From NCBI RefSeq assembly GCF_964030845.1, contig NZ_OZ034983.1, forward strand, positions 1,650,737-1,682,736: 32,000 nt of DNA, in the 5' to 3' direction. Shown in pieces: positions 16,031 to 32,000 of the stretch. The notes beneath the pieces were generated by a model, which saw only the letters and a program-made list of their open reading frames with translations, had not been told where the DNA came from and made no database searches. Both the position numbers and the translations under genes were made by a program. This DNA comes from Candidatus Fukatsuia endosymbiont of Tuberolachnus salignus (lineage in GTDB: Bacteria; Pseudomonadota; Gammaproteobacteria; Enterobacterales; Enterobacteriaceae). The number at the start of each line of letters is the position of its first letter. Position 1 is the first letter of the stretch.

Positions 16031-16034
16031 GTTC

Positions 16035-17132: not shown

Positions 17133-17476
17133 TACGGAAAAATCTATCATTAAACCATCCGTATCCACAGCCGAGATCGACAACATTCGGTCCTTCCACC
17201 GTAGCGGGTCACATATCAACGATTGTCTGCCACTCCGGTGCGCCATATTGATATTTATAACAGGAACATGACAAGAAATGAACAACTTATTGCCACGATA
17301 GTATAACATCACGGAGTTGTACATTAGTATGTGTTATATAATAATCTGCCAGATATCACTATGGAGAATATTATGGCATTTTAAACAAAACGGACATGAC
17401 ACTTGCTCGACGCTATTGATTCGCGTAAAACTATTGGCAGTAAATTCCCTAACTCAACAGATTTTCACTGGACACT

Positions 17477-18945
17477 ATGTTTCAAAATAACCCGCTGCTG
17501 GCGCAGCTTAAAAAGCAATTACATATTCAAACCCCCCGCATTGAAGGGGTGGTTAAAGGTACGGAAAAAAGCTTTGGCTTCCTTGAAGTTGATGGGCAGA
17601 AAAGTTATTTCATCCCTCCACCACAGATGAAAAAAGTTATGCACGGTGACCGCGTGCTTGCCGTTTTACGTACCGATAAAAATCGTGAAATTGTTGAGCC
17701 AGAAAGCTTGGTAGAACCATTTTTATCTCGCTTTGTAGGGCGAATACAAAAAACAGACCAGTGCTTATTTATTATCCCTGATCATCCACTGTTAAGAGAT
17801 GCGATACCTTGTAGCAAAGCACCTGAACTCACTCACAATTTCCAGAACGGTGACTGGGCAGTAGCTGAATGACGATTACAGCAAGTGGCGCTTTGGGTGA
17901 TGACATCCAATTTTCTGTTGCTTGGATAGAATCAAAAGCCAAACTAGTTTATGACCAGATTTCTGATTGGTTGGAAAATCGGGGTGACTGGCAACCACAA
18001 AATAGCGAAATTACAGCACAGATCACACTGTTACAACGCGTCTGTAATGCACGTGATAAGTGGCGTCGACAACATGCTTTGGTGTTTAAAGATCACCCTG
18101 ACTACCGTTTTTCACTGGGTGAAAAAGGTGAGGTATTGGACATCATCGTTGAGCAACGTCGTATTGCCAACCGCATTGTTGAAGAGTGCATGATTGCTGC
18201 CAACATTTGTGCAGCAATCATGCTCCGCGCCGAGCTTGGTTTTGGTATCTATAATGTGCATGCTGGCTTTGATCCAGTCATGGTTGAACAAGTAAGCAAT
18301 GTACTTAAAACTTACGACATTGATACTGATCCCAAAGCTCTATTGACCCTGGAAGGTTTCTGCCAATTACGTCGTCATCTAGATACCTTACCGACACCGT
18401 TCCTTGATGGTCGTATCCGCCGTTTTCAGACCTTCGCAGAAATTAGTACTCAACTCAGCCCACATTTCGGATTAGGTCTGGAAGCTTATGCAACCTGGAC
18501 TTCGCCAATCCGTAAATATGGTGATATGGTTAATCATCGTCTGTTAAAAGCGATTATCAATCGTCAGCAGGTAAATAAGCCACAAGATGAGATCGGTATT
18601 CAATTGGCAGAACGCCGTCGTTTGAACCGAATGGCGGAACGTGATGTAGGAGATTGGCTGTATGCTCGTTATTTGCAACCACTGGCCGGTACTGATAGAC
18701 GGTTTTCTGCTGAGATTATTGACGTCACACGTGGGGGGGTGCGGGTACGTTTATTGGAAAACGGAGCAATGGCTTTTATTCCAGGATCATTCATTCATGC
18801 GGTACGCGACGAGTTGACTTGTAGCCAAGAAGCCGGAAGCGTCCAAATCAAAGGAAAAACGATTTTCCGCCAAAATGATAATATTGAAGTACAGCTTGTT
18901 GAAGTACGAATGGGAAGCCGTAATGTGATTGCACGTCCTATTTAA
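17477..18945 (+). pseudogene. rnb: Exoribonuclease II (rnb) pseudogene with an internal deletion and frame disruption
   Basis: ORF 17477-17872 matches RNase II residues about 1-131 ([59 protein letters not shown]...GDWAVAE) and then hits TGA. ORF 17869-18945, in another frame, resumes at ...[34 protein letters not shown]..., which aligns to E. coli ...[35 protein letters not shown].... About 150 aa are missing, including the start of the RNB domain. Confidence 0.85.
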
Positions 18946-19038
18946 ATTATCTGAAAAGTAAGGCACAGTCGCTGAGTTTTATGGAAATTGGTAATAGCGG
19001 TCAGCAGGTTGCCAATTTCTTGATTATTCCTGGTACAA

Positions 19039-19066
19039 TTTAACATAATATACATTATACGAATTA
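19039..19066 (-). other. dif: dif-type XerC/XerD recombination site, the candidate functional chromosomal dif and prophage end
   Basis: The + strand ATTTAACATAATATACATTATACGAATT has the reverse complement AATTCGTATAA-TGTATA-TTATGTTAAAT. E. coli dif is GGTGCGCATAA-TGTATA-TTATGTTAAAT. The XerD arm is 11/11, the central region 6/6 and the XerC arm 7/11, giving 21 contiguous identical nt. Confidence 0.8.
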
Positions 19067-19132
19067 ACGGAGTTTTGGTGTATTCTAGTGTCTGTCCTTG
19101 TCTGTATGTATAATCGAAAGTATGGGGAAATT

Positions 19133-19357
19133 ATGTTAGCTATCCAACTGCCTATTGAAATCGAAGACCGATTAGACCACCTTGCCGAAATGACTGGCAA
19201 AACAAAGAGATTTTACGTAGAAGAAGCTGTTCTGACTCATCTTGAAGATCTCGAAGATTATTATCAAGCTGCGGAAGTATCAGCACGAGTAAAACAAGGT
19301 AAAGAACAAGTTTATAGCGTCCAAGATGTAAGGAATGCACTTGGTCTGGAAGATTAA
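19133..19357 (+). CDS. Type II antitoxin, ribbon-helix-helix RelB/ParD-like
   Basis: MLAIQLPIEIEDRLDHLAEMTGKTKRFYVEEAVLTHLEDLEDYY... has the typical RHH antitoxin N-terminus. GGGGA RBS sits upstream of the ATG at 19133. It overlaps the downstream RelE-like gene. Confidence 0.8.
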   Translation: MLAIQLPIEIEDRLDHLAEMTGKTKRFYVEEAVLTHLEDLEDYYQAAEVSARVKQGKEQVYSVQDVRNALGLED

Positions 19358-19622
19358 TTATACCGAAAAAGCGCTCAGATCCTTGCGTAAAATGGATAAG
19401 CACAATGCCCGCCGCATCGTTGATTACCTCAATAAGCGCATAGCTCCACATGAAAATCCGAGGCTATTAGGTAAACAGCTTAAAGGTTCCCTTGGAGATT
19501 TTTGGCGTTATCGAATGGGTGATTATCGTATATTATGCGAAATCCATGATGATGAATTGGTGATCCTCGCGGCAACCATAGGTCATCGCCGAGAAGTTTA
19601 TGACTTAATATCCCCCAAATAA
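19335..19622 (+). CDS. Type II toxin, RelE/ParE family
   Basis: ...WKINYTEKALRSLRKMDKHNARRIVDYLNKRI...NPRLLGKQLKGSLGDFWRYRMGDYRILCEIHDDELVILAATIGHRREVY is the canonical RelE/ParE fold signature. It overlaps the antitoxin 3' end by 23 nt. The exact start codon is uncertain. Confidence 0.85.
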   Translation: MHLVWKINYTEKALRSLRKMDKHNARRIVDYLNKRIAPHENPRLLGKQLKGSLGDFWRYRMGDYRILCEIHDDELVILAATIGHRREVYDLISPK

Positions 19623-19674
19623 TCGTATGAAAGTTCTGCCCTGACGCGCCTAACGGCTTGTCCAACCCTTTACA

Positions 19675-19694
19675 CCAACAAGAAACCTTGTTGG
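19675..19694. terminator. Small hairpin between convergent relE-like and LuxR-like genes
   Basis: CCAACAAG-AAAC-CTTGTTGG has an 8-bp stem. Weak T-rich sequence follows on the + strand (GCGTTTTCATTTT). Confidence 0.35.
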
Positions 19695-19758
19695 CGCTCA
19701 GCGTTTTCATTTTGCTACCAAGTGCTGGCAATTTTTTCGTGTTCAAAATCTGTCATTA

Positions 19759-20055
19759 TTATGCTCCGTCGCCATTAAAACACCTTCGTTGTCTGCCTCC
19801 TTTCAATACAAACAACACCAGGCGAACATGAAATACGGTCAGCAACCCCGTCAATGAACAGGATTCAAATTTAATCTTGGCTTCCGCTATCGTCTGTTTA
19901 ACGACTTTATACGAAATTGAACGTAACACCGCGATCTCTTTTTGGGACACGCCGAGAGAAAAAAGCATCGCAGTTTCAAACTGAACCGGCGTTAACTCAG
20001 GAAACAAGTTGCGTAATTCAGGATATTGGGTAGGATCAAAAACAGCCATAATCAA
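19759..20055 (-). CDS. Small LuxR/GerE-type HTH transcriptional regulator (solo DNA-binding domain)
   Basis: ...LTPVQFETAMLFSLGVSQKEIAVLRSISYKVVKQTIAEAKIKF... matches the LuxR C-terminal HTH pattern (LTxRExEvL.L...G.S.KEIA..L.IS..TVK.H). There is no receiver or ligand domain. It is on the same strand as the phage morphogenesis genes. Confidence 0.6.
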   Translation of the reverse strand: MIMAVFDPTQYPELRNLFPELTPVQFETAMLFSLGVSQKEIAVLRSISYKVVKQTIAEAKIKFESCSLTGLLTVFHVRLVLFVLKGGRQRRCFNGDGA

Positions 20056-20117
20056 AGCCTCATTTTGGTTGCGGTCAGCTGCATGATCGGATTCACAGTC
20101 CGGTTATGCAGCGCTCA

Positions 20118-20145
20118 ATTGTACATAATACATAACATGATTTCA
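20118..20145 (-). other. Weak dif-like site (XerD-arm-like half) in the phage intergenic region
   Basis: The minus strand reads TGAAATCATGT-TATGTA-TTATGTACAAT. The XerD arm is 9/11 versus TTATGTTAAAT and the XerC arm only 4/11. It has the same orientation as the 19039-19066 site. Confidence 0.3.
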
Positions 20146-20149
20146 CATT

Positions 20150-20228
20150 GCCTTACTACTTGCATGCCTGCCGATCTTTCACGGCGGGCGTGCTCCTCGC
20201 CACGCTGCGGGGCCTGCCCGCCGCGCAG
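20150..20228 (-). other. GC-rich structured non-coding region downstream of the secretin gene (candidate packaging signal or origin)
   Basis: A strikingly GC-rich patch (CGGCGGGCGTGCTCCTCGCCACGCTGCGGGGCCTGCCCGCCGCGCAG) with complementary segments: CGGCGGGC 20182-20189 / GCCCGCCG 20216-20223, and alternatively GCCTGCCG 20166-20173. In Ff-type phages the region after gene IV holds the packaging hairpin and origins. Confidence 0.35.
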
Positions 20229-21326
20229 TTATCGTCTGACCTTTCTGATCTGTAACACTACCAGAATATCGGTCTTGTTCTGTTCACTGGAGACACCGGT
20301 TAACCAGCCTTGCGGTAAAAAACTGAATCCGGTATCTGCCCTGGTCGATTTTGATTCCGCCAACCCACCCAGCAAAATAATATCGCCATCAGCCACGGAA
20401 ACCTGGGTTGTCACTTGACGTTTAGTTAATGTCGGGCTGTTATTGACACCGGTAGCGGTTTTCACAAAATCAGAGAGTTGCTGATCAATGGCAAGATCGA
20501 TCACATCGGCACGAATAGCCGGTTTGACCTGCAATATCACCCCACTGGAACGGTACTCCACCGATTGTACTGGACGATTATCAGCATAGCTGACCTTACC
20601 GAGTACTGGAACATCTGCACCCACAGAAAATGAAGCCTGTGCACCATTTTTCACCCGTAATCGGGGTGAACTGACCACATGAAAACGGCTGTCAGTACGA
20701 AACAGCTCATACAGCGCATCGAGTGAACCGGTATTGATACGAATAAAATTATCAAAGCCCGCTGCCTGCCCTACCTGAAGATCCAGTTTACCGGACAGTA
20801 ATTTTGCCGCCAGTGCCAAACCTGACCCGTTACGCTCACGGGTTTGCACCTCAAACACATAGGCGGCGACAGTCACTTCTTCCGCAGCGGTGTCAGTTAA
20901 CGGCAGGACTGCCTGTAAACGACGCACATCCGCTTGAGTACCGTAATAAACCAGTACATCACCACTGCGGTTGATAAAATCAGAGGCCGTCCCTGCAATC
21001 GCGGTGTCCTCCGCCCGGTTTCCAGACGGCAACAGCGCATGACGCGCATTGAATTTTCCTGAATGTACAGCAATATTCATGTTTTTTAGATAACGCAGAA
21101 TAAAAGCACGTTCATCACTGTCCGGCGTGATACGGAACGTCACCACCCTTTTATCTTCCGCCAGTTCAGGCGATAGCATAAACGGTTTATCAAAGACATG
21201 AACATACAATAAATTTAATGCCTGTGATAACGGTACCGCATTGAGTTCAAAGGCAATGCCTTTTGCCTGCCCCGGCGTTGTACTCAGACACAACAGTAAA
21301 AGCAACCCTGCCGCTGCATTTTTCAT
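20229..21326 (-). CDS. Phage pIV-type secretin (outer-membrane export channel)
   Basis: Signal peptide MKNAAAGLLLLLCLSTTPGQA. The secretin C-domain motifs are ...VSSPRLRVKNGAQASFSVGADVPV... and ...NSPTLTKRQVTTQVSVADGDIILLGGL.... ATGA overlap with the upstream Zot/pI gene. Confidence 0.9.
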   Translation of the reverse strand: MKNAAAGLLLLLCLSTTPGQAKGIAFELNAVPLSQALNLLYVHVFDKPFMLSPELAEDKRVVTFRITPDSDERAFILRYLKNMNIAVHSGKFNARHALLPSGNRAEDTAIAGTASDFINRSGDVLVYYGTQADVRRLQAVLPLTDTAAEEVTVAAYVFEVQTRERNGSGLALAAKLLSGKLDLQVGQAAGFDNFIRINTGSLDALYELFRTDSRFHVVSSPRLRVKNGAQASFSVGADVPVLGKVSYADNRPVQSVEYRSSGVILQVKPAIRADVIDLAIDQQLSDFVKTATGVNNSPTLTKRQVTTQVSVADGDIILLGGLAESKSTRADTGFSFLPQGWLTGVSSEQNKTDILVVLQIRKVRR

Positions 21327-22384
21327 TTTATCCCTCCTGACCAGACCGTTACCCGCTCACCGTCAATCGTTCCGGTCATCATGACCCCCTCAAAAGCAAA
21401 CTGAGAGACAGGTTCGGCGCGTAAACGTCCGGCGTTATCAGCCAGTACTACCCAGATCTGCCCTTTTTTTGCCAGCTTGCCTGCCACGCGCCAACGAGCA
21501 GAAATAGCGGGTTTTTCAGGCGACGCAGGTACAACATGAAGTGACGTTGTCACTATGGGTGACGGGTTAACCGGTACTGACCGCATGGCCGGTTTATCTG
21601 AGGAAGCCTCTGAAGAAGCATACTGCGTGAAGAAATACACCAAAAACGTGACTGACACTCCTGCCAGTAACAGCATACCGATGACCACCCACCCTAGCCG
21701 TGCAGATGAAAACACATTCTGACGCTTATCCACGGTCAGTTCAGTGCCCTTCCCTCCTTCATAGGAGTGATAAAGCGCAAATATCGCCTTATCATAAGCA
21801 CACTGATAAGACGTAGTACGGGTCGACTTGAACAGCCTGATACCGGTAAACACATCGACACGGTAACGGGTTCTCAGCCCCAATGCCAGCAATTTTTGCA
21901 TACGGTACGTGGTTTCAATGCGATCTTTAATAAAACGGGGTAAATTCGTTACCGACTGATTGATCACTACCAAATCACAGCAAACCCCGGTTCTTTCATT
22001 GGTAAAATGCCGATGTTCAGCAATAAAAGACTGATGCTGCACCGGGATTTTTTTCTCCGTCGGCCAGATACGCCAAGCTTCATCAATACAAATCAAATCG
22101 CCTGACTGGCAAAATGTGTTACCACAGAGTGCGGCTTGTGCTGTTTTATAAGGAAAAAATGTCTCCTGCTGAACCTGTTCATTTTCAACGTAAATAATGT
22201 GACCCAGCGACGTCCGATCCGCTTTTTTAACACTGACACAATAATCAGCAATTTTATCGACACTGATACCGTAAATATTGGTCACTACCCGTCGTCCCGC
22301 CAGACAGGCGGGAATGATCACGCTGGCAACCACTTCATAAGATTTACCGCTACCCGGTACCCCGACATACGCTGAAATCGCCAT
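21323..22384 (-). CDS. Zot / pI-family phage assembly ATPase
   Basis: N-terminal Walker A MAISAYVGVPGSGKSYE, Walker B-like LICIDEAW, and a central TM (LGWVVIGMLLLAGVSVTFLVYFF). Typical of gene I/Zot proteins. Confidence 0.9.
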   Translation of the reverse strand: MAISAYVGVPGSGKSYEVVASVIIPACLAGRRVVTNIYGISVDKIADYCVSVKKADRTSLGHIIYVENEQVQQETFFPYKTAQAALCGNTFCQSGDLICIDEAWRIWPTEKKIPVQHQSFIAEHRHFTNERTGVCCDLVVINQSVTNLPRFIKDRIETTYRMQKLLALGLRTRYRVDVFTGIRLFKSTRTTSYQCAYDKAIFALYHSYEGGKGTELTVDKRQNVFSSARLGWVVIGMLLLAGVSVTFLVYFFTQYASSEASSDKPAMRSVPVNPSPIVTTSLHVVPASPEKPAISARWRVAGKLAKKGQIWVVLADNAGRLRAEPVSQFAFEGVMMTGTIDGERVTVWSGGIK

Positions 22385-22387
22385 AAC

Positions 22388-22675
22388 TTAGCCAATCACC
22401 GGAATACGGCGAATAATAAAACGCGTCAACATGGCAGACAGCACCATACCCATTCCTTGCGGCACCAGAAATAAATTAAGAAAATACCAGGCGCTATCCG
22501 GAAGTGCAGTAAACAACGACGGCAACTCGGTCGATTGCGGCAACCACTGCGCCATTTCCTTTACCAGTTCCTGTACCACAAAAAACAGGGCAAAAAAGAC
22601 GATAAATTTAATGACCAGGGTACGAAAAATAAACCCTAATAGCGCATTCAATGCTGACGTGACTAAACCAAACAT
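22388..22675 (-). CDS. pVI-like minor coat protein (DUF2523-like)
   Basis: 95-aa polytopic hydrophobic protein ending ...RFIIRRIPVIG. It lies between the pIII-like and pI genes, which is the canonical gene VI slot. Confidence 0.6.
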   Translation of the reverse strand: MFGLVTSALNALLGFIFRTLVIKFIVFFALFFVVQELVKEMAQWLPQSTELPSLFTALPDSAWYFLNLFLVPQGMGMVLSAMLTRFIIRRIPVIG

Positions 22676-22685
22676 ACCGTTTCTC

Positions 22686-24383
22686 CTAGGCGCTCAACAC
22701 CAACCGCAACGATAAAAATGCCCAGATAATCCCCGCGAATAAAGCAAAAAGCGCCCTGTTCTTCTCCAGTAATTCACAATGGCTGTTCATCACATGATGG
22801 CGTTCAAAAGCATCAAATTCAGCGACAGGACAAGCCACATTGCGGACAGGCAAGGTGAAATTTTTGATAAAAGGAAACAGCGTCAATAAAGGGGCAAGGA
22901 TCTGTTTACCATCAGGCGGGTTATCCAGTGAGGGTGAATCGATGCCAGGATGTGCCGTATCACTATGCTGTGCCGGTGAAACCGGCGGCGCATAAGGTTC
23001 AATTGCATGATCGGGTTGCGGAAAAAAATCAGGGTCTTCTGAAGGAAATGGCCTGACATCGCCACTCAAAGAAGGGTGTGAAGCAGGCGGCGGAAAATAA
23101 TTGATCTGCTGATAAAGCATCCCTTTGGTCAGTGGTACAGCCGCTTCATTCGCTGCCTGCTGAATTTCTTCAGCCGTCACAGGGTTTGAGGTTGAAAAAG
23201 GAATACCCTGATAATCGGCGCTGGAAGCCGCCTGTATTAAGGTATTATTCACCATATTGGCCGCAAGAGACGGGGCTAAAGGTTCCTGAATTTTATCAGG
23301 ATCTATCTGATGTACATAATCAAGCAAAACACGAGGAGCAATAGATTTTTCATAATTCGGTGTCAGGGATAAATTTCCAATTATATGATTACTTTGACTT
23401 ACACGCTTTTCAAATTTATCAGACTGCTCATTATAATAGATTTCATAATACTTATAGGCCACGTTAACACGGGGAAGAGAAGGATAACCAGAAAAAGACA
23501 CCCCTTCATCATCATAATTCGTCACAGAAAAAGAGATAATATCTTTAGATGCATAAGAGATCTTGTCCTGTTTTACTCTGTTATAAAAAACACAGGCGGC
23601 CAATGCGGTCAAATCATTACTTGAAAATTGAAAATCTGCGGTAAATTTATAATTATTAGTATCGGAATAATTGCGGCCAATATGAATATCAGCAGTACAA
23701 GGAGAATGATTAATATCATAAACTGGAGAAGGTAAAAACTTAAAGGGTTCTACTTTATCAGGAACAATAACAAATAAAGGTTTATGGGGTACAGCATTAA
23801 GGGTAACAATAGAGCCCTTATGATCAATAACAGAAGAACCATCAGGCATCTTTAAATAAAAATAACCATTATCGGCAAACTGACCCGAAGTAGTCGTCTG
23901 GATTTTTTCATTTTCCCCTTCCAGTTTCACTGCCAAATCAGAAGTATTCAGCAATCCCTTATTTAAAGCGAGTTCACCCCATGTACGATTGTGCAGACTT
24001 TCATTCAACCCCTGATTGACTACGGCATCAGGCGCTGATCCCTCTTCTGATAAAAACGCGGAAAGAGTAGCCTCAAGGGCTAAGCCTACCGCCATTGCCT
24101 GCGGTGTTCCACGCAAACCGGCAGTCAGGGCTCTTTTACTGAAAATACGTGACATTATTTTACCGAACCCAGACTGCTCCGCCGCCGCCGTTGCCGCATT
24201 AACCCGAAAATGGGTGTCATTAGCCGCCTGAACCGGTTTGCCAAAATGCGGGTCATTCGCGGCATGGACAGGTGGAACCGGTACCGGCCTCGATGCCGGT
24301 AATGCCTGAGCGGATAGCGTCAATGGAAAAAACAGAACCAACAGTATTACCCCTGCAAACCCTGAATCACTGCCCATGCGCAT
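22686..24383 (-). CDS. pIII-like adsorption / minor coat protein
   Basis: Signal peptide (..GFAGVILLVLFFPLTLSAQA), a Pro-rich linker (PPPASHPS...FPSEDPDFFPQPDH..PYAPPVSPA) and a C-terminal membrane anchor (ALFALFAGIIWAFLSLRLVLSA). It lies after the coat gene. The start could be 24395 (GTG), 24383 or 24377. Confidence 0.65.
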   Translation of the reverse strand: MRMGSDSGFAGVILLVLFFPLTLSAQALPASRPVPVPPVHAANDPHFGKPVQAANDTHFRVNAATAAAEQSGFGKIMSRIFSKRALTAGLRGTPQAMAVGLALEATLSAFLSEEGSAPDAVVNQGLNESLHNRTWGELALNKGLLNTSDLAVKLEGENEKIQTTTSGQFADNGYFYLKMPDGSSVIDHKGSIVTLNAVPHKPLFVIVPDKVEPFKFLPSPVYDINHSPCTADIHIGRNYSDTNNYKFTADFQFSSNDLTALAACVFYNRVKQDKISYASKDIISFSVTNYDDEGVSFSGYPSLPRVNVAYKYYEIYYNEQSDKFEKRVSQSNHIIGNLSLTPNYEKSIAPRVLLDYVHQIDPDKIQEPLAPSLAANMVNNTLIQAASSADYQGIPFSTSNPVTAEEIQQAANEAAVPLTKGMLYQQINYFPPPASHPSLSGDVRPFPSEDPDFFPQPDHAIEPYAPPVSPAQHSDTAHPGIDSPSLDNPPDGKQILAPLLTLFPFIKNFTLPVRNVACPVAEFDAFERHHVMNSHCELLEKNRALFALFAGIIWAFLSLRLVLSA

Positions 24384-24433
24384 AGCAGACCCCACATAAA
24401 AAACACTAAATTCCAGTATTCACTCATAGCCAC

Positions 24434-24453
24434 AAAAAGGGGCATGGTGCCCC
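24434..24453 (-). terminator. Rho-independent terminator immediately after the major coat gene
   Basis: The minus strand reads GGGGCA-CCA-TGCCCC followed by TTTTT. It starts 8 nt after the coat stop codon. This is analogous to the strong terminator after gene VIII in Ff phages. Confidence 0.7.
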
Positions 24454-24461
24454 TCCTCCTG

Positions 24462-24686
24462 TTAGGCACTGCGTACCATGCGCAATATCCACTTCACCCC
24501 CGCAAAACCGGCATATAGGGTGATCAAAGTGGCAGCTACCGCCATAATACCGGTCAATACTTTGGAAAAATCGACCGCATTAGTGAGTGTGGTTAAATCC
24601 GCCGCATCAGCCAGTGCCAGCGAACTGAACAGGCACAGAGTGAACAAAACGAGCATTTTGGTATAAAGTGATTTCATTAATTGCAT
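24462..24686 (-). CDS. Major coat protein (pVIII-like)
   Basis: MQLMKSLYTKMLVLFTLCLFSSLALA|DAADLTTLTNAVDFSKVLTGIMAVAATLITLYAGFAGVKWILRMVRSA. This gives a signal peptide, then about 48 aa of mature protein with an acidic N-terminus, hydrophobic core and basic C-terminus. GGAGAGG sits 5 nt upstream of the ATG at 24686. Confidence 0.8.
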   Translation of the reverse strand: MQLMKSLYTKMLVLFTLCLFSSLALADAADLTTLTNAVDFSKVLTGIMAVAATLITLYAGFAGVKWILRMVRSA

Positions 24687-24747
24687 GATTACCTCTCCAT
24701 TAAATAAAACGTTATTAAATAAGTTAAAAGCTTCACAGGTTAATTTA

Positions 24748-24972
24748 TTAAGCATTTTTTACCATATTTAAAATCAGCCCGATTCCTTTAGAAAATAAAT
24801 AAAGAAAAATGACTGAGGTAAAAGCCAGCCCCCAAAATAGCCCTGCTTTGGCGTAATCCATTTCAGAGACTGGCTGATAGGGCGACTCAATAGACAAGGT
24901 GATTGCCTGACAATTTTTCTCCGATGGAACATCACAAATTTGTCCCGTAATAACCCCTGGCTGAATGGCCAT
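24748..24972 (-). CDS. Small phage membrane protein (unassigned, possibly a minor coat or assembly protein)
   Basis: 74 aa with one C-terminal TM (GLFWGLAFTSVIFLYLFSKGIGLIL). It sits between the ssb-like and coat genes. Confidence 0.45.
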   Translation of the reverse strand: MAIQPGVITGQICDVPSEKNCQAITLSIESPYQPVSEMDYAKAGLFWGLAFTSVIFLYLFSKGIGLILNMVKNA

Positions 24973-24978
24973 AGCGTA

Positions 24979-25308
24979 TTACCCTTTAGCAACTTCTTGC
25001 ACAGAAAGCACTTCCTGTGTTTCACCCGAGCGTCCGTTGAAATCCCATTTATTAATCCGGAATTTAATTTCAACCTGTTTTGATTTCAGCGACTTTAATT
25101 GATTATGAAGACCGGTTAAAACGAGAGCAGGAGGAACAATAAATTTGTCCGTACGGGTATCCGTTCCGCCAAAATCATTCATCACTTCAGATTGCAGCCC
25201 TAAAATATATTTTATTTTGTCCTGTTTTTTCCCTTCCTTATCCATAAATGATGAAGGTTGTGCATTAACACCTAGCAAGGTACCACGATAAAGATAACCG
25301 GTAAGCAT
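24979..25308 (-). CDS. Putative ssDNA-binding protein (gene V / RstB positional analogue)
   Basis: 109 aa, beta-rich and Lys-rich, directly downstream of the replication gene. The assignment rests on position and size only. Confidence 0.4.
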   Translation of the reverse strand: MLTGYLYRGTLLGVNAQPSSFMDKEGKKQDKIKYILGLQSEVMNDFGGTDTRTDKFIVPPALVLTGLHNQLKSLKSKQVEIKFRINKWDFNGRSGETQEVLSVQEVAKG

Positions 25309-25327
25309 GTAATCTCCTTGAAATAAA

Positions 25328-26608
25328 TTAAGCGACTTTTATGGTATTCATCTGTTTTTCAAATAAGCTGACGGGCTCGACATACCAGTCTGGGCGCTGA
25401 TTGGAAAAATCGACCTGAATAATTTGCATTAACGGAACAATATTATTTTTATCCGCGGTTAGATTTTGTAATTGTGCTTTACTGAACCCAACAGCAAGCA
25501 AATCACTGACATGCCGCCAAAAAGTGGCTCTATCCATATTTTGTAAGACGCCGTCATACCCTTCATTGACTAATCGGCGGTAGAAACCAAATAACCGTTG
25601 GGCTTTGGCGTAAGTCACATTGCCTTTTGGCGTGATTCTAAAATAACGATTTTTCAATATTTCATAAATGTTATCATCGGAATAAATATTCATATTCTTA
25701 CCTTCAAGAGCAGAAAGCACGTCTTTAAACGACGCATGCCATAAATCGGCTATTAATGACTTTTCATCAGATTCATAACTCAGTTGGTAATTTACCGCCT
25801 GAAAAAAATTAAGAGGCATCCCAAAATTATTGATAAAACGCTGTTTTAACCGGCCTTCAAAACGGACAAGTCCTTTGCTAAATTTCTGTAATTTTGGATC
25901 TTCCATCACCTGTAATTGATTACGTAATGAAAGGTTACGTGGATTTCGTGCTATCGCGCTTTTTATCAATTGGCACTGACGCATCAGCTCAGGATGTTTT
26001 AAATAAGCAATGAGTATGCGGTGGCGGCTGCCTTCATTCCACATGCAGGTTGTCTCCCACTCTTGAGCACGGGTGCATTTAGTTTGTCCATTGCTAACAT
26101 TACGCAAGGCAGAGATCACTTGTTCCGCCTGTTTTTCTGTGGGAATACGTGCAGAATAAGTAACATCAATGCGATCAATCACGGTCGCGCTAATGTTCAG
26201 CATTTCATACAGCTTTGATGCGGAAACCGCAAGATTAACCAACAATTCCATACCACATAATGCTAAATCAGTACTGCCAAACACATTATGACCTTGCAAC
26301 AGTTTGGCAGGAGAGGCTTTTATTTCCACACAAGGATGACGATTGCAGGTACCGCAATAAATTTTCATCGCCAGGCCGCTGTAATGAGTCGGTAAAGAAT
26401 CAAACGGATGATTTAACCCTTTCACGGTCAAATCGCCATCAATATCGAATTCTACGGAACGGGCAGAAAGTATTAAGCCTGATTTTTTAGCCACTGCTTC
26501 AAGATCAATATAGATCCCTCCTTGTTCATCGGCAGATTTAGTTATGATCAGATGCTCTTCTTTAAATGGGATAGAAAATTTGATTAAATCAATCATCCTT
26601 GGTGCCAT
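25328..26608 (-). CDS. Rolling-circle replication initiation protein, phage gene II/X (CRI) family
   Basis: ...VEIKASPAKLLQGHNVFGS...DRIDVTY... are motifs characteristic of filamentous-phage gpII/RstA-type initiators. It is the first gene of the phage operon and divergent from the repressor. The start could instead be the ATG at 26596. Confidence 0.85.
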   Translation of the reverse strand: MAPRMIDLIKFSIPFKEEHLIITKSADEQGGIYIDLEAVAKKSGLILSARSVEFDIDGDLTVKGLNHPFDSLPTHYSGLAMKIYCGTCNRHPCVEIKASPAKLLQGHNVFGSTDLALCGMELLVNLAVSASKLYEMLNISATVIDRIDVTYSARIPTEKQAEQVISALRNVSNGQTKCTRAQEWETTCMWNEGSRHRILIAYLKHPELMRQCQLIKSAIARNPRNLSLRNQLQVMEDPKLQKFSKGLVRFEGRLKQRFINNFGMPLNFFQAVNYQLSYESDEKSLIADLWHASFKDVLSALEGKNMNIYSDDNIYEILKNRYFRITPKGNVTYAKAQRLFGFYRRLVNEGYDGVLQNMDRATFWRHVSDLLAVGFSKAQLQNLTADKNNIVPLMQIIQVDFSNQRPDWYVEPVSLFEKQMNTIKVA

Positions 26609-26612
26609 ATAA

Positions 26613-26687
26613 GTATCAATATGAAATCAAATATACAACCTAAAAATCATATATGCAACAAATCACTGTAAAATAATCATATATGAA
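26613..26687. promoter_or_regulatory. Divergent promoter/operator region with three phased repeats
   Basis: ATCAATATGAAA (26614-26625), ATCATATATGCAA (26645-26657) and ATCATATATGAAA (26675-26687). Centre-to-centre spacing is 31 and 30 bp. The last two contain the 8-bp palindrome CATATATG. The region lies between rep and the XRE repressor. Confidence 0.5.
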
Positions 26688-26702
26688 ATAGGAGTAATAA
26701 AT

Positions 26703-27032
26703 ATGAGACATATAGGCGACAATATAAAGCGCATAAGAGAGGCAATGAAAATCAGTCAACAAGAACTTGCTGAAAGAAGTGAAGTATCTAAGGCACAAAT
26801 TTCAAGATTAGAAACTGGTTCGCAAAATAATCCACAAATACAAACACTTGTGGCAATTTCAACGGCTCTTGGGATTACTTTAGAAGAAACGGTCTTCGGT
26901 GAAGAATCTGCAAGCAATGCTTACCTGTCAGAAGCCCTGACATCTCTGCCAAAACAGGACCAAATGGCGATTAAGAAGCTGATAAAAATGTGGGTATTAA
27001 CGTCACAAGCAGAGAAAATGTCATGCGAGTGA
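26703..27032 (+). CDS. XRE-family HTH repressor (RstR/cI-like phage regulator)
   Basis: IGDNIKRIREAMKISQQELAERSEVSKAQISRLETGSQNNPQIQTLVAISTALGITLEE is a canonical HTH_XRE domain. GGAG RBS is present. It is divergent from the rep gene. Confidence 0.85.
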   Translation: MRHIGDNIKRIREAMKISQQELAERSEVSKAQISRLETGSQNNPQIQTLVAISTALGITLEETVFGEESASNAYLSEALTSLPKQDQMAIKKLIKMWVLTSQAEKMSCE

Positions 27033-27050
27033 GGTTTCAATTTGAAACAA

Positions 27051-27077
27051 GAGTCCACTATTAAAGATAGTGGACTC
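27051..27077. terminator. Hairpin downstream of the XRE gene
   Basis: GAGTCCACTAT-TAAAG-ATAGTGGACTC has a perfect 11-bp stem. No T tract follows on the + strand, so termination efficiency is uncertain. Confidence 0.4.
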
Positions 27078-27186
27078 ACCCCTCCACCCTAACCATTACA
27101 CAACGCGTGACCAATACGGAGCACAAGAAAAATGCGGTATAGTCATGTCACCTGTTTGAATGAAACTGATAAAGGTAAGTCAGGGT

Positions 27187-27429
27187 ATGCCAGTCATCTT
27201 GCGATTTAAGGGCTATACGTTTTTTTTCTATTCGAATGAAGGCAACCCACGGGAATCCCTCCATATTCACGTTAGAAATGCGGGAAATGAAGCCAAATTC
27301 TGGTTGATGCCAATGGTACAACTCGCCCGTAACGACGGCTTTAACGCTCGCGAGCTTAAAGAACTCAACGATGTGATAGAACAACATAAAAAATTATTTG
27401 AGGAGACTTGGAATGAATATTTCAGCTAA
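27187..27429 (+). CDS. DUF4160 family protein
   Basis: MPVILRFKGYTFFFYSNEGNPRESLHIHVRNAGNEAKFWL... is the hallmark DUF4160 N-terminus (M.....G..F.FYS.E...P.H.HV). I take the start at the ATG at 27187. Confidence 0.8.
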   Translation: MPVILRFKGYTFFFYSNEGNPRESLHIHVRNAGNEAKFWLMPMVQLARNDGFNARELKELNDVIEQHKKLFEETWNEYFS

Positions 27430-27661
27430 GAAAGTACGATTTGATGAATTTAATCTGTGGGTTGAGTTGAATGATGCCCGTATATTAGGCGTGCCTTTAG
27501 CCTGGTTTCCCAAGTTATTACATGCCAGCGAAGCAGAACGCAATCAGTTTGAATTGAGTGCCAGAGGCATACACTGGGATAGCCTGGATGAAGATATTTC
27601 CATTGAAGGGCTACTAAATGGAAGAAGAGATGTGACTCATCGCCCTCACCATGCTGCCTGA
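27413..27661 (+). CDS. DUF2442 family protein
   Basis: MNISAKKVRFDEFNLWVELNDARILGVPLAWFPKLLHASEAERNQFELSARGIHWDSLDEDISIEGLL is the typical DUF2442 pattern (..W.P.L..A....R......G.G..W..LDEDIS.E.LL). AGGAG sits 7 nt upstream. It overlaps the DUF4160 gene by 17 nt. Confidence 0.8.
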   Translation: MNISAKKVRFDEFNLWVELNDARILGVPLAWFPKLLHASEAERNQFELSARGIHWDSLDEDISIEGLLNGRRDVTHRPHHAA

Positions 27662-27665
27662 TTTT

Positions 27666-27693
27666 GATGCGCATAATGCACGTTATGCTAAAG
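27666..27693 (+). other. dif-like XerC/XerD site (inverted partner of the attP hairpin)
   Basis: GATGCGCATAA-TGCACG-TTATGCTAAAG versus E. coli dif. The XerC arm is 10/11, the XerD arm 9/11 and the central region 3/6. Its orientation is opposite to the sites at 19039 and 27728. Confidence 0.7.
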
Positions 27694-27727
27694 AAGCCGC
27701 TGCGACCTGCGATTTTCGCAGCGGCTT
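27694..27727 (+). terminator. Perfect 11-bp stem-loop with T tract, serving as the DUF4160/DUF2442 terminator and the apical stem of the putative attP hairpin
   Basis: AAGCCGCTGCG (27694-27704) / CGCAGCGGCTT (27717-27727) with a 12-nt loop. T residues at 27726-27730 form the tail. Confidence 0.7.
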
Positions 27728-27758
27728 TTTCAACATAACGTTATACCTTATACGCATT
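27728..27758 (-). other. dif-like site with a 9-nt central region, the putative hybrid junction (chromosomal XerC arm plus phage core)
   Basis: The minus strand reads AATGCGTATAA-GGTATAACG-TTATGTTGAAA. The XerC arm is 8/11 versus E. coli, and 10/11 versus the arm at 19056-19066. The XerD arm is 9/11. It has the same orientation as the 19039-19066 site. Confidence 0.55.
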
Positions 27759-27905
27759 AACATGGCGCCAACTGAGACTGGCTTGCGTACGGGCTTGTCA
27801 GGCCTGATCGTCACTGTTGTTCTCTGCGCTTAATAGCTCATAAATTCCCACTCCTTTCGATTCGAGCAGTGGTTTTTTAATGCTTCACAACTTTCTATTT
27901 TTAGA

Positions 27906-27928
27906 CTAATGTATGTTGTAACTAAAAA
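27906..27928 (+). promoter_or_regulatory. terB: Ter (Tus-binding replication terminator) site in the tus promoter, TerB-like
   Basis: CTAATGTATGTTGTAACTAAAAA versus E. coli TerB AATAAGTATGTTGTAACTAAAGT. The 16-nt core GTATGTTGTAACTAAA is identical, including the G6 position. It ends 23 bp upstream of the tus ATG, matching the E. coli TerB-tus autoregulatory arrangement. Confidence 0.8.
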
Positions 27929-27951
27929 GTTAAGATTATTAAGGGATAAAT

Positions 27952-28881
27952 ATGGATAAATATGCTTTGATTGATAAAATGGATACTCTGTTTGCTGAAC
28001 TTGAATTTGCGCTGGATAATATTCAACAACAATTGGCAAAGCTAACTCTTCTTTCCGCTCGTATTTTTATTTTACCTGATATAGAAAAAGGAACCGAACA
28101 CGATCCCATAGAGCAAATATCTGTGACACCAATAGAAGGCCAAGAGGCTTGTTATCTAGGTTTACAACATTTTCGACGTTTGTTTATTCATCATAATAAC
28201 CAAAATATTAGTAGTAAAGCAGCCGTTCGCTTACCGGGAGTTATGTGTTTTTCCGTTAATAATAATGAATATCTCTCCTGCCTAACTCAGATTTCTAAGA
28301 TAAATACCTTAAAATCTGAGTTAGAGCATATTATTACCGTCGAATCTGGTTTGCCAAGTGAGCAACGTTTTGAATTTGTTCATACACATTTACGCGGGTT
28401 AATAACACTCAATACATACCGTACACTGATACCTTTGATTAATCCAAGCTCAGTGCGTTTTGGTTGGGCAAATAAACATGTTATAAAAAATATTACCCGT
28501 AAAGATTTGCTAACTCGACTTGAGAAAAGTTTGAATGCCGGGCGAGCAATTCCTCCTTTTACCCGTGAGCAACGCGTGGCATGGATTAGTAAAGAAATTG
28601 ACGAAGTACAACAACTGCCAGAAAAAGCACGGCTTTTGATTAAGCGACCAGTGAAAGTACAACCTATTTCACGCGTATGGTATCAGGAACAACAGAAACA
28701 GGTACAACATCCCTGCTCTATGCCATTAATTGCATTATGCGAAAATCGTCATGGCGTTAATTTACCCAAAATGGGGGAACTAAAAAATTATGATGTCACT
28801 CAGGTGAAACATAAATATAAACCTAATGCTCGCCCACTGCGTTTGCTTCTCCCTCGATTACATCTCTATACATATGATTAG
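27952..28881 (+). CDS. tus: DNA replication terminus site-binding protein Tus
   Basis: ...SSKAAVRLPGVMCF...HIITVESGLPSEQRFEFVHTHLRGLITLNTYRTL...VRFGWANKHVIKN...IKRPVKVQPISRVWYQEQQKQVQH...YKPNARPLRLLLPRLHLY is collinear with E. coli Tus (309 aa). Confidence 0.95.
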   Translation: MDKYALIDKMDTLFAELEFALDNIQQQLAKLTLLSARIFILPDIEKGTEHDPIEQISVTPIEGQEACYLGLQHFRRLFIHHNNQNISSKAAVRLPGVMCFSVNNNEYLSCLTQISKINTLKSELEHIITVESGLPSEQRFEFVHTHLRGLITLNTYRTLIPLINPSSVRFGWANKHVIKNITRKDLLTRLEKSLNAGRAIPPFTREQRVAWISKEIDEVQQLPEKARLLIKRPVKVQPISRVWYQEQQKQVQHPCSMPLIALCENRHGVNLPKMGELKNYDVTQVKHKYKPNARPLRLLLPRLHLYTYD

Positions 28882-28904
28882 ATTTTTTGTTTTAAATCGT
28901 CATA

Positions 28905-29033
28905 GACAAAGAAAAAATGAGCGAAAAAGCGTAGTTTATTCTTTGTCTACAACAAAAAGGGAGTAAATGAGCATTTTGAGCTCTTTTTTGACGAAGTATC
29001 AGCGAGCACAAGAGATTTCGAACAGATTATTAG
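28905..29033. repeat. ERIC/MITE-like intergenic repeat, copy B (downstream of tus, left arm missing or replaced)
   Basis: GAAAAAATGAGCGAAAAAGCGTAGTTTA...AAAAGGGAGTAAATGAGCATTTTGAGCTCTTTTTTGACGAAGTATCAGCGAGCACAAGAGATTTCGAACAGATTATTAGAAG aligns with copies A and C. Confidence 0.65.
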
Positions 29034-29087
29034 AAGATAAGATGCCTAAAAACGCTGGGTACAACAGCTCCCCAGCGTGAGTTTTTT

Positions 29088-30497
29088 CTATTCGTTATTG
29101 TTTTTATTGACTGCGCTGCCTACCATATCTGCTGGTCGTACCCATTGATCAAATTCTTCCTCAGTTAATCCTAACGTCAGAGCAGAAGCCTTCAACGTCG
29201 TTCCTGTTTCATGCGCATTTTTGGCAATTTTGGCCGCTTTGTCATAACCAATGTGTGGGTTCAGCGCCGTTACCAGCATCAAAGAGTCATTAAGTAGTTG
29301 AGTAATACGTTTTTTATTGGGTTTAATACCTATTGCACAAAACTGGTCAAAACCACGAATACCATCAGCTAATAACCGGATAGATTGTAAATAGTTATGA
29401 ATGATCATCGGACGGAACACATTTAATTCAAAATTTCCGGAGGCACCACCGATGCTGATCGCGACGTCGTTACCCATCACTTGAGCACAAAGCATTGTCA
29501 TTGCTTCACATTGTGTCGGATTAACTTTGCCTGGCATGATGGAGCTACCTGGTTCATTTTCCGGAATGGATATTTCACCAATACCGCAGCGTGGACCCGA
29601 TGATAACCAACGGACATCATTGGCTATTTTCATTAATGAGGCAGCCAAACCTTTTAACGCACCATGACCATGAACCAACGCATCACAAGTTGCTAATGCT
29701 TCAAATTTATTAGGAGCAGTAACAAAAGGTTGTTTCGTGTACTTTGCAATTTCTTGTGCAACCTGTCCTGCATAGTCAGGATGTGTATTTAATCCAGTAC
29801 CAACTGCAGTGCCTCCCAAAGCCAGCTCGCACAAATGTGGGATTGTCGCTTCAATGTGTGTTTTGCTGTGTGCTAACATTGCCGCCCAACCAGATATCTC
29901 TTGCCCCAATGTCAGTGGTGTCGCATCCTGTAGATGAGTGCGCCCAATTTTAACAATGTCTTTGAAAGAGAGCTCTTTGTCTACCAGTGTCTGGTGTAAT
30001 TTTTCCAACGCTGGCAATAAATCTTTATGCATGCCCATCACCGCTGCAATATGCATCGCCGTAGGGAATACGTCGTTAGAACTTTGACTTTTGTTCACAT
30101 CATCGTTCGGATGAACTGGACTACCTTGACCACGTTGACCCTTCAAAATTTCGCTCGCACGATTCCCCAACACTTCATTCATATTCATATTGGTTTGTGT
30201 GCCGGATCCCGTTTGCCAGACAGAAAGTGGGAATTCGTCTGGATGCTTACCCTCAAGTACCTCGTCAGCAGCCTTAATAATGGCCTGCGCTTTTTTTTCG
30301 TCCAAAAGTTTTAAATTCATATTAACTTCCGCTGCAGCACGCTTGGTCACAGCTAACGCATAAATCAGTGCCTCAGGCATTTTTTCCTGCGAAATATCAA
30401 AATGCTTTAGTGAACGCTCAGTTTGCGCTCCCCATAAACGGTCATTAGCTACTTCAATGGGTCCCATTGAGTCTTTTTCTATGCGAGTAGCGGTCAT
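29088..30497 (-). CDS. fumC: Class II fumarate hydratase
   Basis: [29 protein letters not shown]... and the signature [25 protein letters not shown] sits before the ATG at 30497. The 32-codon upstream extension in the ORF track is unlikely to be translated. Confidence 0.96.
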
Positions 30498-30691
30498 TAC
30501 TTTCTCCTCTAACAAATTAAATAGATTTCTTGCAAAACCGTCGTTCAAAACACCTGCATTATCCAGCATGATGATGTACAGAATCGGTACCATGTCATAT
30601 TAAAACAATTTATTTTGCGATTAATATAATAACTTGCGAGAATCTCTTGCAAAAGTTACAAAGGAGCAAAAAATTATAATGGAACAAAATT

Positions 30692-31879
30692 ATGCAAAAA
30701 ATGATCAACAGTGTGCAAAATTATTCCTGGGGCAGTACTGATGCTTTAACTCACTTGTATGGTATTGCCAATCCACAGAAAAAGCCCATGGCGGAACTGT
30801 GGATGGGTGCACATGCAAAGAATAGCTCTTACGTCATCGGTGCTAATGGGCAACCTTGTTCATTGCTCGAGCTAATCGCAAAGGATGTACAAGGCTGTCT
30901 GGGTAATGCCGCTGATTACGGTGAATTGCCTTTTTTGTTTAAGGTATTGTGTGCTGCACAACCATTATCGATTCAAGTTCATCCTAGTAAAAGAGCCGCT
31001 GAAATCGGGTTCGCTAAGGAAAATGCCGCAGATATTCCGCTCGATGCGCCAAATCGCAATTACAAGGATGCTAATCATAAACCCGAACTGGTCTATGCAC
31101 TAACACCCTTTCATGCGATGAATGGCTTTCGTACTATGGAAGATATGAACACCCTACTGCAACCGGTGTCGACAGCTCACCCTGATGTTGCTGTATTTTT
31201 GCAGAATCAAAACACAGCGAATCTAGCCAAATTATTCGCCAGTTTACTCGATATGACAGGTCAGACAAAAAACCGAGCATTGACGGTGTTAAAATCAGCG
31301 TTAAATCATCAACAAGGTGAACCTTGGGACACAGTTCGCAATATTGCTCAATTCTATCCAGAAGACAGCGGTTTATTCTCGCCATTACTACTCAACGTCG
31401 TTATGCTACAGCCTGGTGAAGCGATGTTTTTATCTGCTCAAACACCACACGCATACCTCAATGGAGTAGCATTAGAGGTAATGGCTAATTCAGATAACGT
31501 ATTACGCGCCGGTCTAACCGAAAAATTTATCGATATCCCTGAGTTAATGGCAAACCTGAAATTTATTGCCAAGCCGGTCAAAGATTTGCTAACAACACCA
31601 TTACACCAGGAAAATGAGTTAATCTTTCCTATCCCTGTGCGAGATTTTTCGTTTTCTATTCATGATCTCAGCGTTACGTCGCAGGTAATAACACAAAAAA
31701 GCGCCGCCATTATATTTTGTATCGAGGGCGAGGCCATTCTCGAAAAATTAAGCACACGAGAAAAATCTGCTCAAAAACTACATTTACAACCAGGTGAGTC
31801 TTGCTTTATCGTCGCTGATGAGTCTCCCATCAATGTCTACGGCTACGGACGGATTGCCAGAGTTTTTAATCGCTCATAA
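30692..31879 (+). CDS. manA: Mannose-6-phosphate isomerase, class I
   Basis: MQKMINSVQNYSWGS...MAELWMGAH...LPFLFKVLCAAQPLSIQVHP...NHKPELVYALTPF...PHAYLNGVALEVMANSDNVLRAGLT is collinear with E. coli ManA. Confidence 0.95.
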   Translation: MQKMINSVQNYSWGSTDALTHLYGIANPQKKPMAELWMGAHAKNSSYVIGANGQPCSLLELIAKDVQGCLGNAADYGELPFLFKVLCAAQPLSIQVHPSKRAAEIGFAKENAADIPLDAPNRNYKDANHKPELVYALTPFHAMNGFRTMEDMNTLLQPVSTAHPDVAVFLQNQNTANLAKLFASLLDMTGQTKNRALTVLKSALNHQQGEPWDTVRNIAQFYPEDSGLFSPLLLNVVMLQPGEAMFLSAQTPHAYLNGVALEVMANSDNVLRAGLTEKFIDIPELMANLKFIAKPVKDLLTTPLHQENELIFPIPVRDFSFSIHDLSVTSQVITQKSAAIIFCIEGEAILEKLSTREKSAQKLHLQPGESCFIVADESPINVYGYGRIARVFNRS

Positions 31880-31883
31880 TCGG

Positions 31884-32000
31884 CTCTAAGAACCTGTTCC
31901 AAATCTTCTTGAGCGACGCTCAGACGAAGAAGAAACTCACGAAAAAACGCAGTTTACAGAGAGTCACTGAGCATTTTGAGCGCGTTTTTGACGAATTACT
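31884..32000. repeat. ERIC/MITE-like intergenic repeat, copy C (downstream of manA, cut by the window end)
   Basis: GCTCTAAGAACCTGTTCCAAATCTTCTTGAGCGACGCTCAGACGAAGAAGAAACTCACGAAAAAACGCAGTTTACAGAGAGTCACTGAGCATTTTGAGCGCGTTTTTGACGAA. Its left arm is the inverted complement of the right arm seen in copies A and B (CTTAGAACCTGTTCGAAATCTCTTGTGCTCGCTGAT...). Confidence 0.65.

Follow-up and report, generated by a model that had tools for sequence, protein, structure and literature searches.

How did a filamentous phage enter the dif site of an aphid symbiont: as duplex DNA, or as a folded single strand in the manner of CTXphi of Vibrio cholerae? We addressed this question in a 32,000-nucleotide stretch of DNA from the Candidatus (Ca.) Fukatsuia endosymbiont of Tuberolachnus salignus (RefSeq assembly GCF_964030845.1, contig NZ_OZ034983.1, positions 1,650,737 to 1,682,736 of the forward strand). 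We call this whole stretch the window and number it from its first letter. Three XerC/XerD-type sites bracket an 8.7-kb inovirus prophage (19.04-27.76 kb) between rnb and tus. The segment at 27666-27758, which holds two of these sites in inverted orientation, is the left (attL) end of this Ff/IKe-like prophage at the host dif. Judged from the junctions and from homologous cassettes elsewhere, the best-supported reading of the locus is CTXphi-type integration through a phage attachment site (attP) formed by a hairpin of single-stranded DNA (ssDNA), to which we assign a probability of roughly 0.75. CTXphi represents the CTX type among integrative mobile elements that exploit Xer (IMEXs), a mechanism described by Val et al. 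2005 and summarised in PMC3089051 and PMC4246890. The window holds a divergent new example of this known hairpin-attP design in an unusual host, with no new mechanism.

The internal, inverted Xer site lies at 27666-27693 on the plus strand and reads GATGCGCATAA-TGCACG-TTATGCTAAAG. It is intact, and the bottom strand of the predicted hairpin comes from it. Its partner, the forward (crossover) site of attL, lies at 27728-27758 on the minus strand and reads AATGCGTATAA-GGTATAACG-TTATGTTGAAA, with the host flank and tus directly after it. The XerC arm of this forward site (27748-27758) is probably host-derived, and its 9-nucleotide (nt) centre (27739-27747) and XerD arm (27728-27738) belong to the phage. 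In the 34-nt spacer between the two sites (27694-27727), positions 27694-27705 pair without a mismatch with 27716-27727, giving a 12-bp stem that closes a 10-nt loop. The third site, attR, is a regenerated dif-type site at 19038-19065 on the minus strand, AATTCGTATAA-TGTATA-TTATGTTAAAT. It combines a probably phage-derived XerC arm (19055-19065) with a perfect dif centre (TGTATA, 19049-19054) and a perfect dif XerD arm from the host (19038-19048), and in our site scans it is a direct repeat of the site at 27728-27758. A first-pass annotation of the same DNA had described the inverted pair, the 34-nt spacer, and the perfect centre and XerD arm of the distal site, all of which we read in the same way; its 11-bp stem is one base pair too short, and its coordinates for the distal site, 19039-19066, are shifted by one. 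With up to two mismatches allowed over 17 core positions, exactly three Xer sites occur in the window, where 0.10 would be expected. None of 300 first-order Markov simulations contained at least three sites, and none of 300 contained an inverted pair within 150 nt.

Read along the sense strand of the phage genes, the order is host flank, AATGCGTATAA/GGTATAACG-TTATGTTGAAA (the slash marks the boundary between XerC arm and centre), stem-loop, reverse complement of the second site, regulators, pII through pIV, accessory genes, AATTCGTATAA/TGTATA-TTATGTTAAAT, and host flank. The site that abuts host DNA is the forward site, whose 9-nt centre is non-canonical for a duplex, and the canonical-looking site with its 6-nt centre is internal and intact. 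The replication and morphogenesis genes, together with the XerC-to-XerD reading of both attL and attR, all lie on the minus strand. In inoviruses the sense strand is the packaged strand, and the strand inserted here is the one expected to be packaged, as the first-pass annotation had pointed out. This junction structure and this polarity are shown by the sequence, as are the sites, their computed fold, and the homology with uninterrupted phage copies. The junction order is the product expected if XerC had swapped top strands between a phage site, AATTCGTATAA-GGTATAACG-TTATGTTGAAA, and a host dif, AATGCGTATAA-TGTATA-TTATGTTAAAT. We favor a hairpin over a simple duplex because the crossover fell at the site with the 9-nt centre and left the canonical-looking site intact, and because the inserted strand is the gene-sense, packaged strand.

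In the proposed route, the (+) strand of the free phage (minus strand of the window) would carry AATTCGTATAA-GGTATAACG-TTATGTTGAAA, the 34-nt stem-loop, and the reverse complement of the second site. Once single-stranded, this segment would fold back into a forked hairpin: XerC arm would pair with XerC arm and XerD arm with XerD arm, and the two short duplexes would flank a centre that stays unpaired and asymmetric. Host XerC and XerD would bind this pseudo-duplex and synapse it with dif, XerC would exchange one pair of strands at the boundary between XerC arm and centre, and replication would turn the resulting pseudo-Holliday junction into a prophage. Binding by XerCD, catalysis by XerC only, and the use of ssDNA are what we infer from homology and topology. 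The route predicts an attL composed of the host XerC arm, the phage centre, the loop, and the intact inverted site, and an attR composed of the phage XerC arm with the host centre and XerD arm, which would be a working dif. The window matches both predictions exactly. The junction of the circular phage is predicted to be AATTCGTATAA/GGTATAACGTTATG and would join position 19066 onwards to position 27747 downwards. A published rule for CTXphi-type integration is that the bases beside the XerC cleavage point pair after exchange (PMC3089051). Read by hand, the host TGT pairs at three of three positions with the bottom strand of the hairpin, 3'-ACG (T-A, G-C, and a T.G wobble), and the phage GGT pairs at two of three with the host 3'-ACA, so the window appears to fit this rule only in part.

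We folded positions 27660-27765 as ssDNA, a check that the first-pass annotation had proposed for the minus strand. The minus (phage-sense) strand folds at -30.5 kcal/mol (z = -7.3, with none of 200 shuffles as good) and the plus strand at -25.4 kcal/mol (z = -5.8). These values are for the hybrid sequence of the prophage; the true phage attP(+) has the XerC arm that is now at 19055-19065, and when reconstructed with its own arm, AATTCGTATAA, it forms the same forked hairpin at -26.1 kcal/mol. Counted by hand on the minus strand, the XerC arms pair through nine Watson-Crick pairs, one G.T, and one A.C, and the XerD arms through eight Watson-Crick pairs, two G.T, and one A.C, in agreement with the earlier count apart from the added A.C in each. 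The two centres had been expected to stay open as a bubble. An asymmetric internal loop is indeed left in the minimum-energy fold, mainly GGTATA on the 5' side, but the centres are not wholly unpaired: three bases of the 9-nt centre, ACG, pair with CGT in the 6-nt one.

The attachment cassette is also found uninterrupted in phage genomes. L082 and L083, which are circularly permuted contigs of ~8 kb and come from different samples, encode a pII that is 68% identical to that of the window. Between pIV and the reverse-oriented regulators they carry an uninterrupted attP, consisting of GGTGCGCATAA-TGTCAACGCG-TTATGTTGAAA, a stem-loop, and the inverted site AGTGCGCACAA-TGACG-TTATGCTAAAG. Both XerD arms and the GAAAATC at the start of the loop are identical to those of the window, and the stem of L082 departs from the window's in two ways, a compensatory change from A-T to G-C and a T.G wobble. 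These contigs bear on an alternative in which the inverted pair is not a phage unit at all, being either the native chromosomal dif with an adjacent terminator or the leftovers of successive unrelated integrations. Native dif plus terminator is ruled out by the presence of the whole cassette on circular phage contigs of an extrachromosomal type. The cassette also stands at the junctions of tandem prophage copies, it adjoins inovirus genes in Escherichia coli and, in tandem, on a Klebsiella plasmid, and its 9-nt centre is not that of a native dif.

What speaks for this alternative is L081, a 1.3-kb contig from another sample (Logan ERR13868243) that encodes a 100%-identical Tus and was the only contig returned by an exact look-up of that protein. 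Positions 1-110 of L081 (corresponding to window 27664-27770) keep the forward site and a variant stem-loop, then diverge where the inverted site is expected, into 30 unrelated nt that have no match in the window, the compared loci, or IMG/VR. Its stem carries two changes, both of which leave G.T wobbles on the phage-sense strand but A.C mismatches on its complement. However, the L081 segment is homologous to the phage cassette, so the L081 strain also carries phage-derived DNA, and L081 may represent a different or decayed element at the same dif. Taken together, we regard an origin of the inverted pair outside the phage as highly improbable.

Relatives of the cassette occur in several other settings. 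E. coli UM146 has an 8.4-kb inovirus prophage with a perfect dif as its right end; the cassette lies at the left end of this prophage, beside hipBA, and is homologous to that of the window, with both XerD arms identical and a nearly identical stem; the differences include AAGCC in the stem of the window versus AGGCC in UM146, and a forward-site centre that starts with GGT in the window versus TGT. Xenorhabdus sp. SF857 (CP119194.1, ~0.99-1.02 Mb) has three tandem Ff-like prophages at dif with a period of 8.52 kb. Their sites are arranged in a like manner around an unrelated spacer stem, and the array ends in GGTTCGCATAA-TCTATA-TTATGTTAAAT. One of these prophage copies has a split pVI-like gene. 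A remnant in E. coli M605 and the contig L124 likewise show a like architecture with unrelated spacer stems. We considered whether the M605 remnant is CUS-1 and rejected this identification, as the remnant is in no complete E. coli genome. The closest chromosomal relative by pII (65% identity) is in Ca. Symbiopectobacterium endolongispinus, a mealybug symbiont, where a degraded version of this architecture with an unrelated spacer stem (L084, positions 9026-9132) keeps the XerD arm, stem-loop, and inverted site. Its forward-site XerC arm is unrecognisable, and it adjoins ankyrin-repeat genes with no obvious dif.

A pattern scan of IMG/VR recovered 34 inovirus-sized contigs with a near-identical cassette, and the XerD arm of the window's inverted site is identical to that in L082 and in all 34. 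These contigs have variable flanks and diverse replication modules, and the cassette is therefore mosaic. Their forward-site centre always starts with TGT and is otherwise hypervariable, so that the GGT of the window is an exception. Plasmids carry the cassette as well. It matches 440 of them, 393 conjugative and 347 from Escherichia, mostly as a remnant of 72 nt at ~93% identity that comprises the XerD arm, the stem-loop, and the inverted site; the example that we inspected is on the E. coli IncF plasmid NZ_OW967976.1 at 15644-15714. A Klebsiella pneumoniae IncFIB/IncHI1B plasmid (NZ_CP132684.1) has a tandem pair of complete inovirus prophages. Tandem arrays among the relatives comprise the Xenorhabdus triplet, this Klebsiella plasmid pair, and the contigs L104 and L107. 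All versions in which both sites are complete fold as a forked hairpin, and the Symbiopectobacterium remnant folds only partly. Of the two strands, the (+) strand gives the more stable ssDNA fold in seven of eight versions, and on it the arm pairs are typically 17 Watson-Crick, three to four G.T, and one A.C. Cassette homology and topology support a putative attP of the CTXphi style, formed by folded (+) ssDNA at the prophage's left end, as the first-pass annotation had proposed.

A second alternative accounts for the junctions without a hairpin. In VGJphi-type integration, the duplex replicative form would recombine with dif through the forward site alone, with the stem-loop acting only as a terminator and the inverted site having some other role, such as resolution of replicative-form dimers or that of a decoy. 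XerC-first exchange on a duplex forward site would give the same attL and attR junctions, and the inverted site does have a canonical 6-bp centre. The spacer stem-loop is followed by TTTTTC on the plus strand, a terminator-like match, and resembles an intrinsic terminator for the repressor, DUF4160, and DUF2442 genes; a search of the stem-loop against Rfam gave only sub-threshold chance matches to a mycobacterial sRNA model. In the duplex Xer sites characterised so far the centre is 6-8 bp, whereas that of the crossover site is 9 nt in the window and between 9 and 13 nt in all relatives. The intact prophages that can be read at both ends are those of the window, E. coli UM146, and Xenorhabdus, and in none of them did the crossover fall at the canonical-looking site. 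Moreover, the two sites are kept ~30-60 nt apart across cassettes whose spacer stems are unrelated. The asymmetry of a long forward and a short inverted centre (9 and 6 nt here) mirrors attP1 and attP2 of CTXphi, which have 12 and 7 nt (PMC3089051), and the published classification places the enterobacterial relatives in the CTX type and not the VGJ type (PMC4246890). The VGJ type has a single duplex attP with a short centre, and the window has two sites, with a 9-nt centre in the one that crossed over. We therefore consider duplex integration unlikely, and likewise a role for the inverted site apart from integration; the stem-loop of a hairpin attP could also double as the terminator of the plus-strand regulatory operon.

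Several points weigh against integration through a hairpin. Inverted dif-like half-sites must pair whatever their function, and arm complementarity alone does not discriminate between the readings. The stem-loop is a plausible intrinsic terminator for the plus-strand regulatory genes in its own right. The cassettes are homologous, so their shared polarity and G.T bias are largely inherited and do not count as independent observations. At its first base, G, the phage centre mismatches the T of the host centre, unlike in all other versions that retain a forward-site centre, which have TGT. Our literature search found no experiment on this or any other enterobacterial member, and the ssDNA route is drawn by analogy with CTXphi. 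The prophage may also be no longer active, and may be immobile, because it is single-copy and its pIV has an internal deletion. Tandem arrays, which allow new (+) strands to be made by rolling-circle replication, bear on phage production rather than on integration, and the window has one copy. The genes xerC and xerD lie outside the window.

No empty dif of a related Fukatsuia strain was retrieved by a Tus scan, protein look-ups, or metagenome searches, which also weighs against the hairpin. A scan of genome contigs with Tus, in a set that does not contain the host species, gave a best match of 73% in Yersinia nurmii, and dif was near tus only in Rahnella. Exact-protein look-ups found none of the rnb fragment, the DUF4160 protein, and protein P0001 on record, and a metagenome scan for the attL junction returned no matches. 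An exact copy of the dif predicted for the host before integration, AATGCGTATAATGTATATTATGTTAAAT, is present in 66 metagenome contigs, so the proposed host site exists in nature as a dif variant. None of these 66 contigs shares the flanks of the window.

In general, the locus resembles that of CTXphi in its layout. Both have inverted dif-like sites, a forked hairpin predicted on the (+) strand, and the same order of hybrid site, spacer, inverted site, divergent repressor, replication gene, morphogenesis genes, and regenerated dif. Tandem arrays are likewise shared, here in the relatives. Unlike CTXphi, whose spacer is ~90 nt, the window has a 34-nt spacer with its own perfect stem. It also differs in having an Ff/IKe-type pII as replication protein, its own pIV secretin, and no toxin genes; its host is a Yersiniaceae aphid symbiont, and its mechanism is a proposed one.

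The first-pass annotation had stated that Ypfphi and CUS-1 are classed with phages that use a double-stranded attP, which would make a hairpin attP unusual in this lineage. The literature places them with CTXphi instead. The ssDNA model "is not restricted to CTXphi," and the attP features of CUS-1 and Ypf are described as suited to direct ssDNA integration (PMC3089051). Ypfphi and CUS-1phi are listed as related members of the CTXphi type (PMC4246890) and as enterobacterial IMEXs related to CTXphi (PMC3442271), and the Ypfphi genome has a pair of inverted XerC/XerD sites (PMC4266046). A hairpin attP had thus already been proposed for enterobacterial phages, and the 97-nt cassette is present in 176 of 5,426 complete E. 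coli genomes. Like the prophage of the window, Ypfphi of Yersinia pestis and CUS-1phi of E. coli K1 are 8.7-kb inoviruses of enterobacteria that integrate at dif, with a regulator in reverse orientation and accessory open reading frames (ORFs) at both ends; the attP of Ypfphi was compared by its description only.

Kinship with this group lies in the cassette and not in the replication gene. The attachment cassette and dif layout are shared with enterobacterial phages, as seen in E. coli UM146 and the 34 IMG/VR contigs. The window pII is ~50% identical to the nearest E. coli or Salmonella pII and at most 50-55% identical to E. coli, Salmonella, and Xenorhabdus homologues, which does not indicate close kinship to Ypfphi, CUS-1phi, and the UPphi phages; among Ypfphi and UPphi, genes II and V are >85% identical (Shapiro and Putonti 2020, PMC7307601). 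The prophage had no megablast match in a phage collection that does not contain Ypfphi, and megablast of 15000-32000 against complete E. coli genomes, which should include CUS-1 carriers, gave only weak matches to host genes. A scan of viral contigs with pII also gave no match. By tblastn (E <= 1e-5), the window pII did not match the Rep genes of most cassette-bearing IMG/VR phages, and the Rep of these phages is only ~24% identical to related E. coli and Salmonella pII. The UPphi phages share with the window an IKe/I2-2-like gene order with pIV, integration at dif, reverse-oriented ORFs by the site, and tandem copies, and the paper that describes them speaks only of "a copy of the dif site," with no word of a hairpin or an inverted pair (PMC7307601). 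From its gene order, the E. coli UM146 prophage is probably of the UPphi type. Our literature search found no paper that links Fukatsuia with inoviruses.

The inovirus gene set of the prophage is complete on the minus strand, in the order pII/pX, pV, a small ORF, pVIII, pIII-like, pVI, pI/Zot, and pIV. The rolling-circle replication initiator pII/pX (25328-26608; Pfam Phage_CRI 7e-63 and G2P_X_C 5e-28) is 54% identical to pII of Ff-like and of IKe/PEar phages and 100% identical to an NCBI protein of the Ca. Fukatsuia endosymbiont of T. salignus. It is followed by the ssDNA-binding protein pV (24979-25308; Putative_G5P 3.3e-10) and the precursor of the major coat protein pVIII (24462-24755; Phage_Coat_B 1.5e-4, and phrog_2186, a virion structural protein, 8e-20). 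A pIII-like attachment protein of 569 amino acids (aa) at 22686-24395 is assigned from position and size (phrog_3942 5e-48, no Pfam match). The pVI-like minor coat protein (22388-22675; DUF2523 1.1e-17) and the pI/Zot-type assembly ATPase (21323-22384; Zot 7.1e-25) precede the 365-aa secretin pIV (20229-21326; Secretin 8.7e-25). This pIV is 67% identical to that of L082, with an in-frame gap of ~43 residues after residue 88, and the phage may be export-defective. Given the pII identities and the possession of its own secretin, the phage is Ff/IKe-like in replication and secretion. The order pII-pV-pVIII-pIII-pVI-pI-pIV, with a phage-encoded secretin, is also that of Ff (M13/f1/fd) and IKe. Unlike the window prophage, those phages are non-integrating and have no dif-like site, repressor module, or accessory genes (see also PMC7307601).

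Downstream of pIV on the minus strand is a 98-aa accessory ORF (19759-20055) with a weak match to a helix-turn-helix (HTH) of the sigma-70 region-4 type (Sigma70_r4_2 0.0074, below cut-off; phrog_3282 4e-4). On the plus strand, divergent from pII and in the position of rstR in CTXphi, is an XRE/cI-type HTH repressor (26703-27032; HTH_3 5e-16, Phage_CI_repr 2.4e-7). Between it and the attachment region lie the plus-strand genes for a DUF4160 protein (27160-27429; 1.9e-20) and a DUF2442 protein (27398-27661; 4.4e-21). At the other end of the prophage, also on the plus strand, are an antitoxin-like ORF of 89 aa (19088-19357; weak TraY match in Pfam) and a 95-aa ParE/RelE-type toxin (19335-19622; ParE_toxin 1.6e-15, phrog_4085 4e-16). 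A two-gene module thus sits just inside each end (19088-19622 and 27160-27661), on the strand opposite the phage genes, and these antitoxin-like/ParE-type and DUF4160/DUF2442 modules may be addiction or defence cargo.

On the host side, tus (27952-28881; Pfam Ter family) encodes a protein with up to 73% identity to Yersinia Tus. The other flank is a split rnb, and the prophage is in the terminus region of the symbiont. The rnb gene, for RNase II, apparently a pseudogene with a frameshift, is split into two ORFs at 17477-17872 and 17869-18945. Between nth and rnb lies an IS630-type transposase (DDE_3, 16050-17108, minus strand); both features fit the genome decay of a symbiont. The nth gene, for endonuclease III, is at 15389-16030, ~3 kb from the prophage and dif. 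Endonuclease III is a reported host cofactor of CTXphi integration (PMC3442271), and its proximity here is probably a coincidence of the position of the rsx-nth operon.

The window provides a divergent and well-delimited case of CTX-type Xer exploitation outside Vibrio, in the genome of an insect symbiont. The hairpin cassette proposed for Ypfphi and CUS-1phi is widespread and travels with different replication modules, and it could be used to delimit and orient enterobacterial inovirus prophages. More speculatively, an essentially intact Ff/IKe-like phage with a CTX-type hairpin may have entered the dif of Ca. Fukatsuia recently. Together with a putative different element behind the same forward site in L081 and the Symbiopectobacterium relative, this would tentatively suggest that inoviruses are an active vehicle of gene transfer that turns over among insect endosymbionts, carrying a portable attP cassette exchanged among unrelated replication modules.

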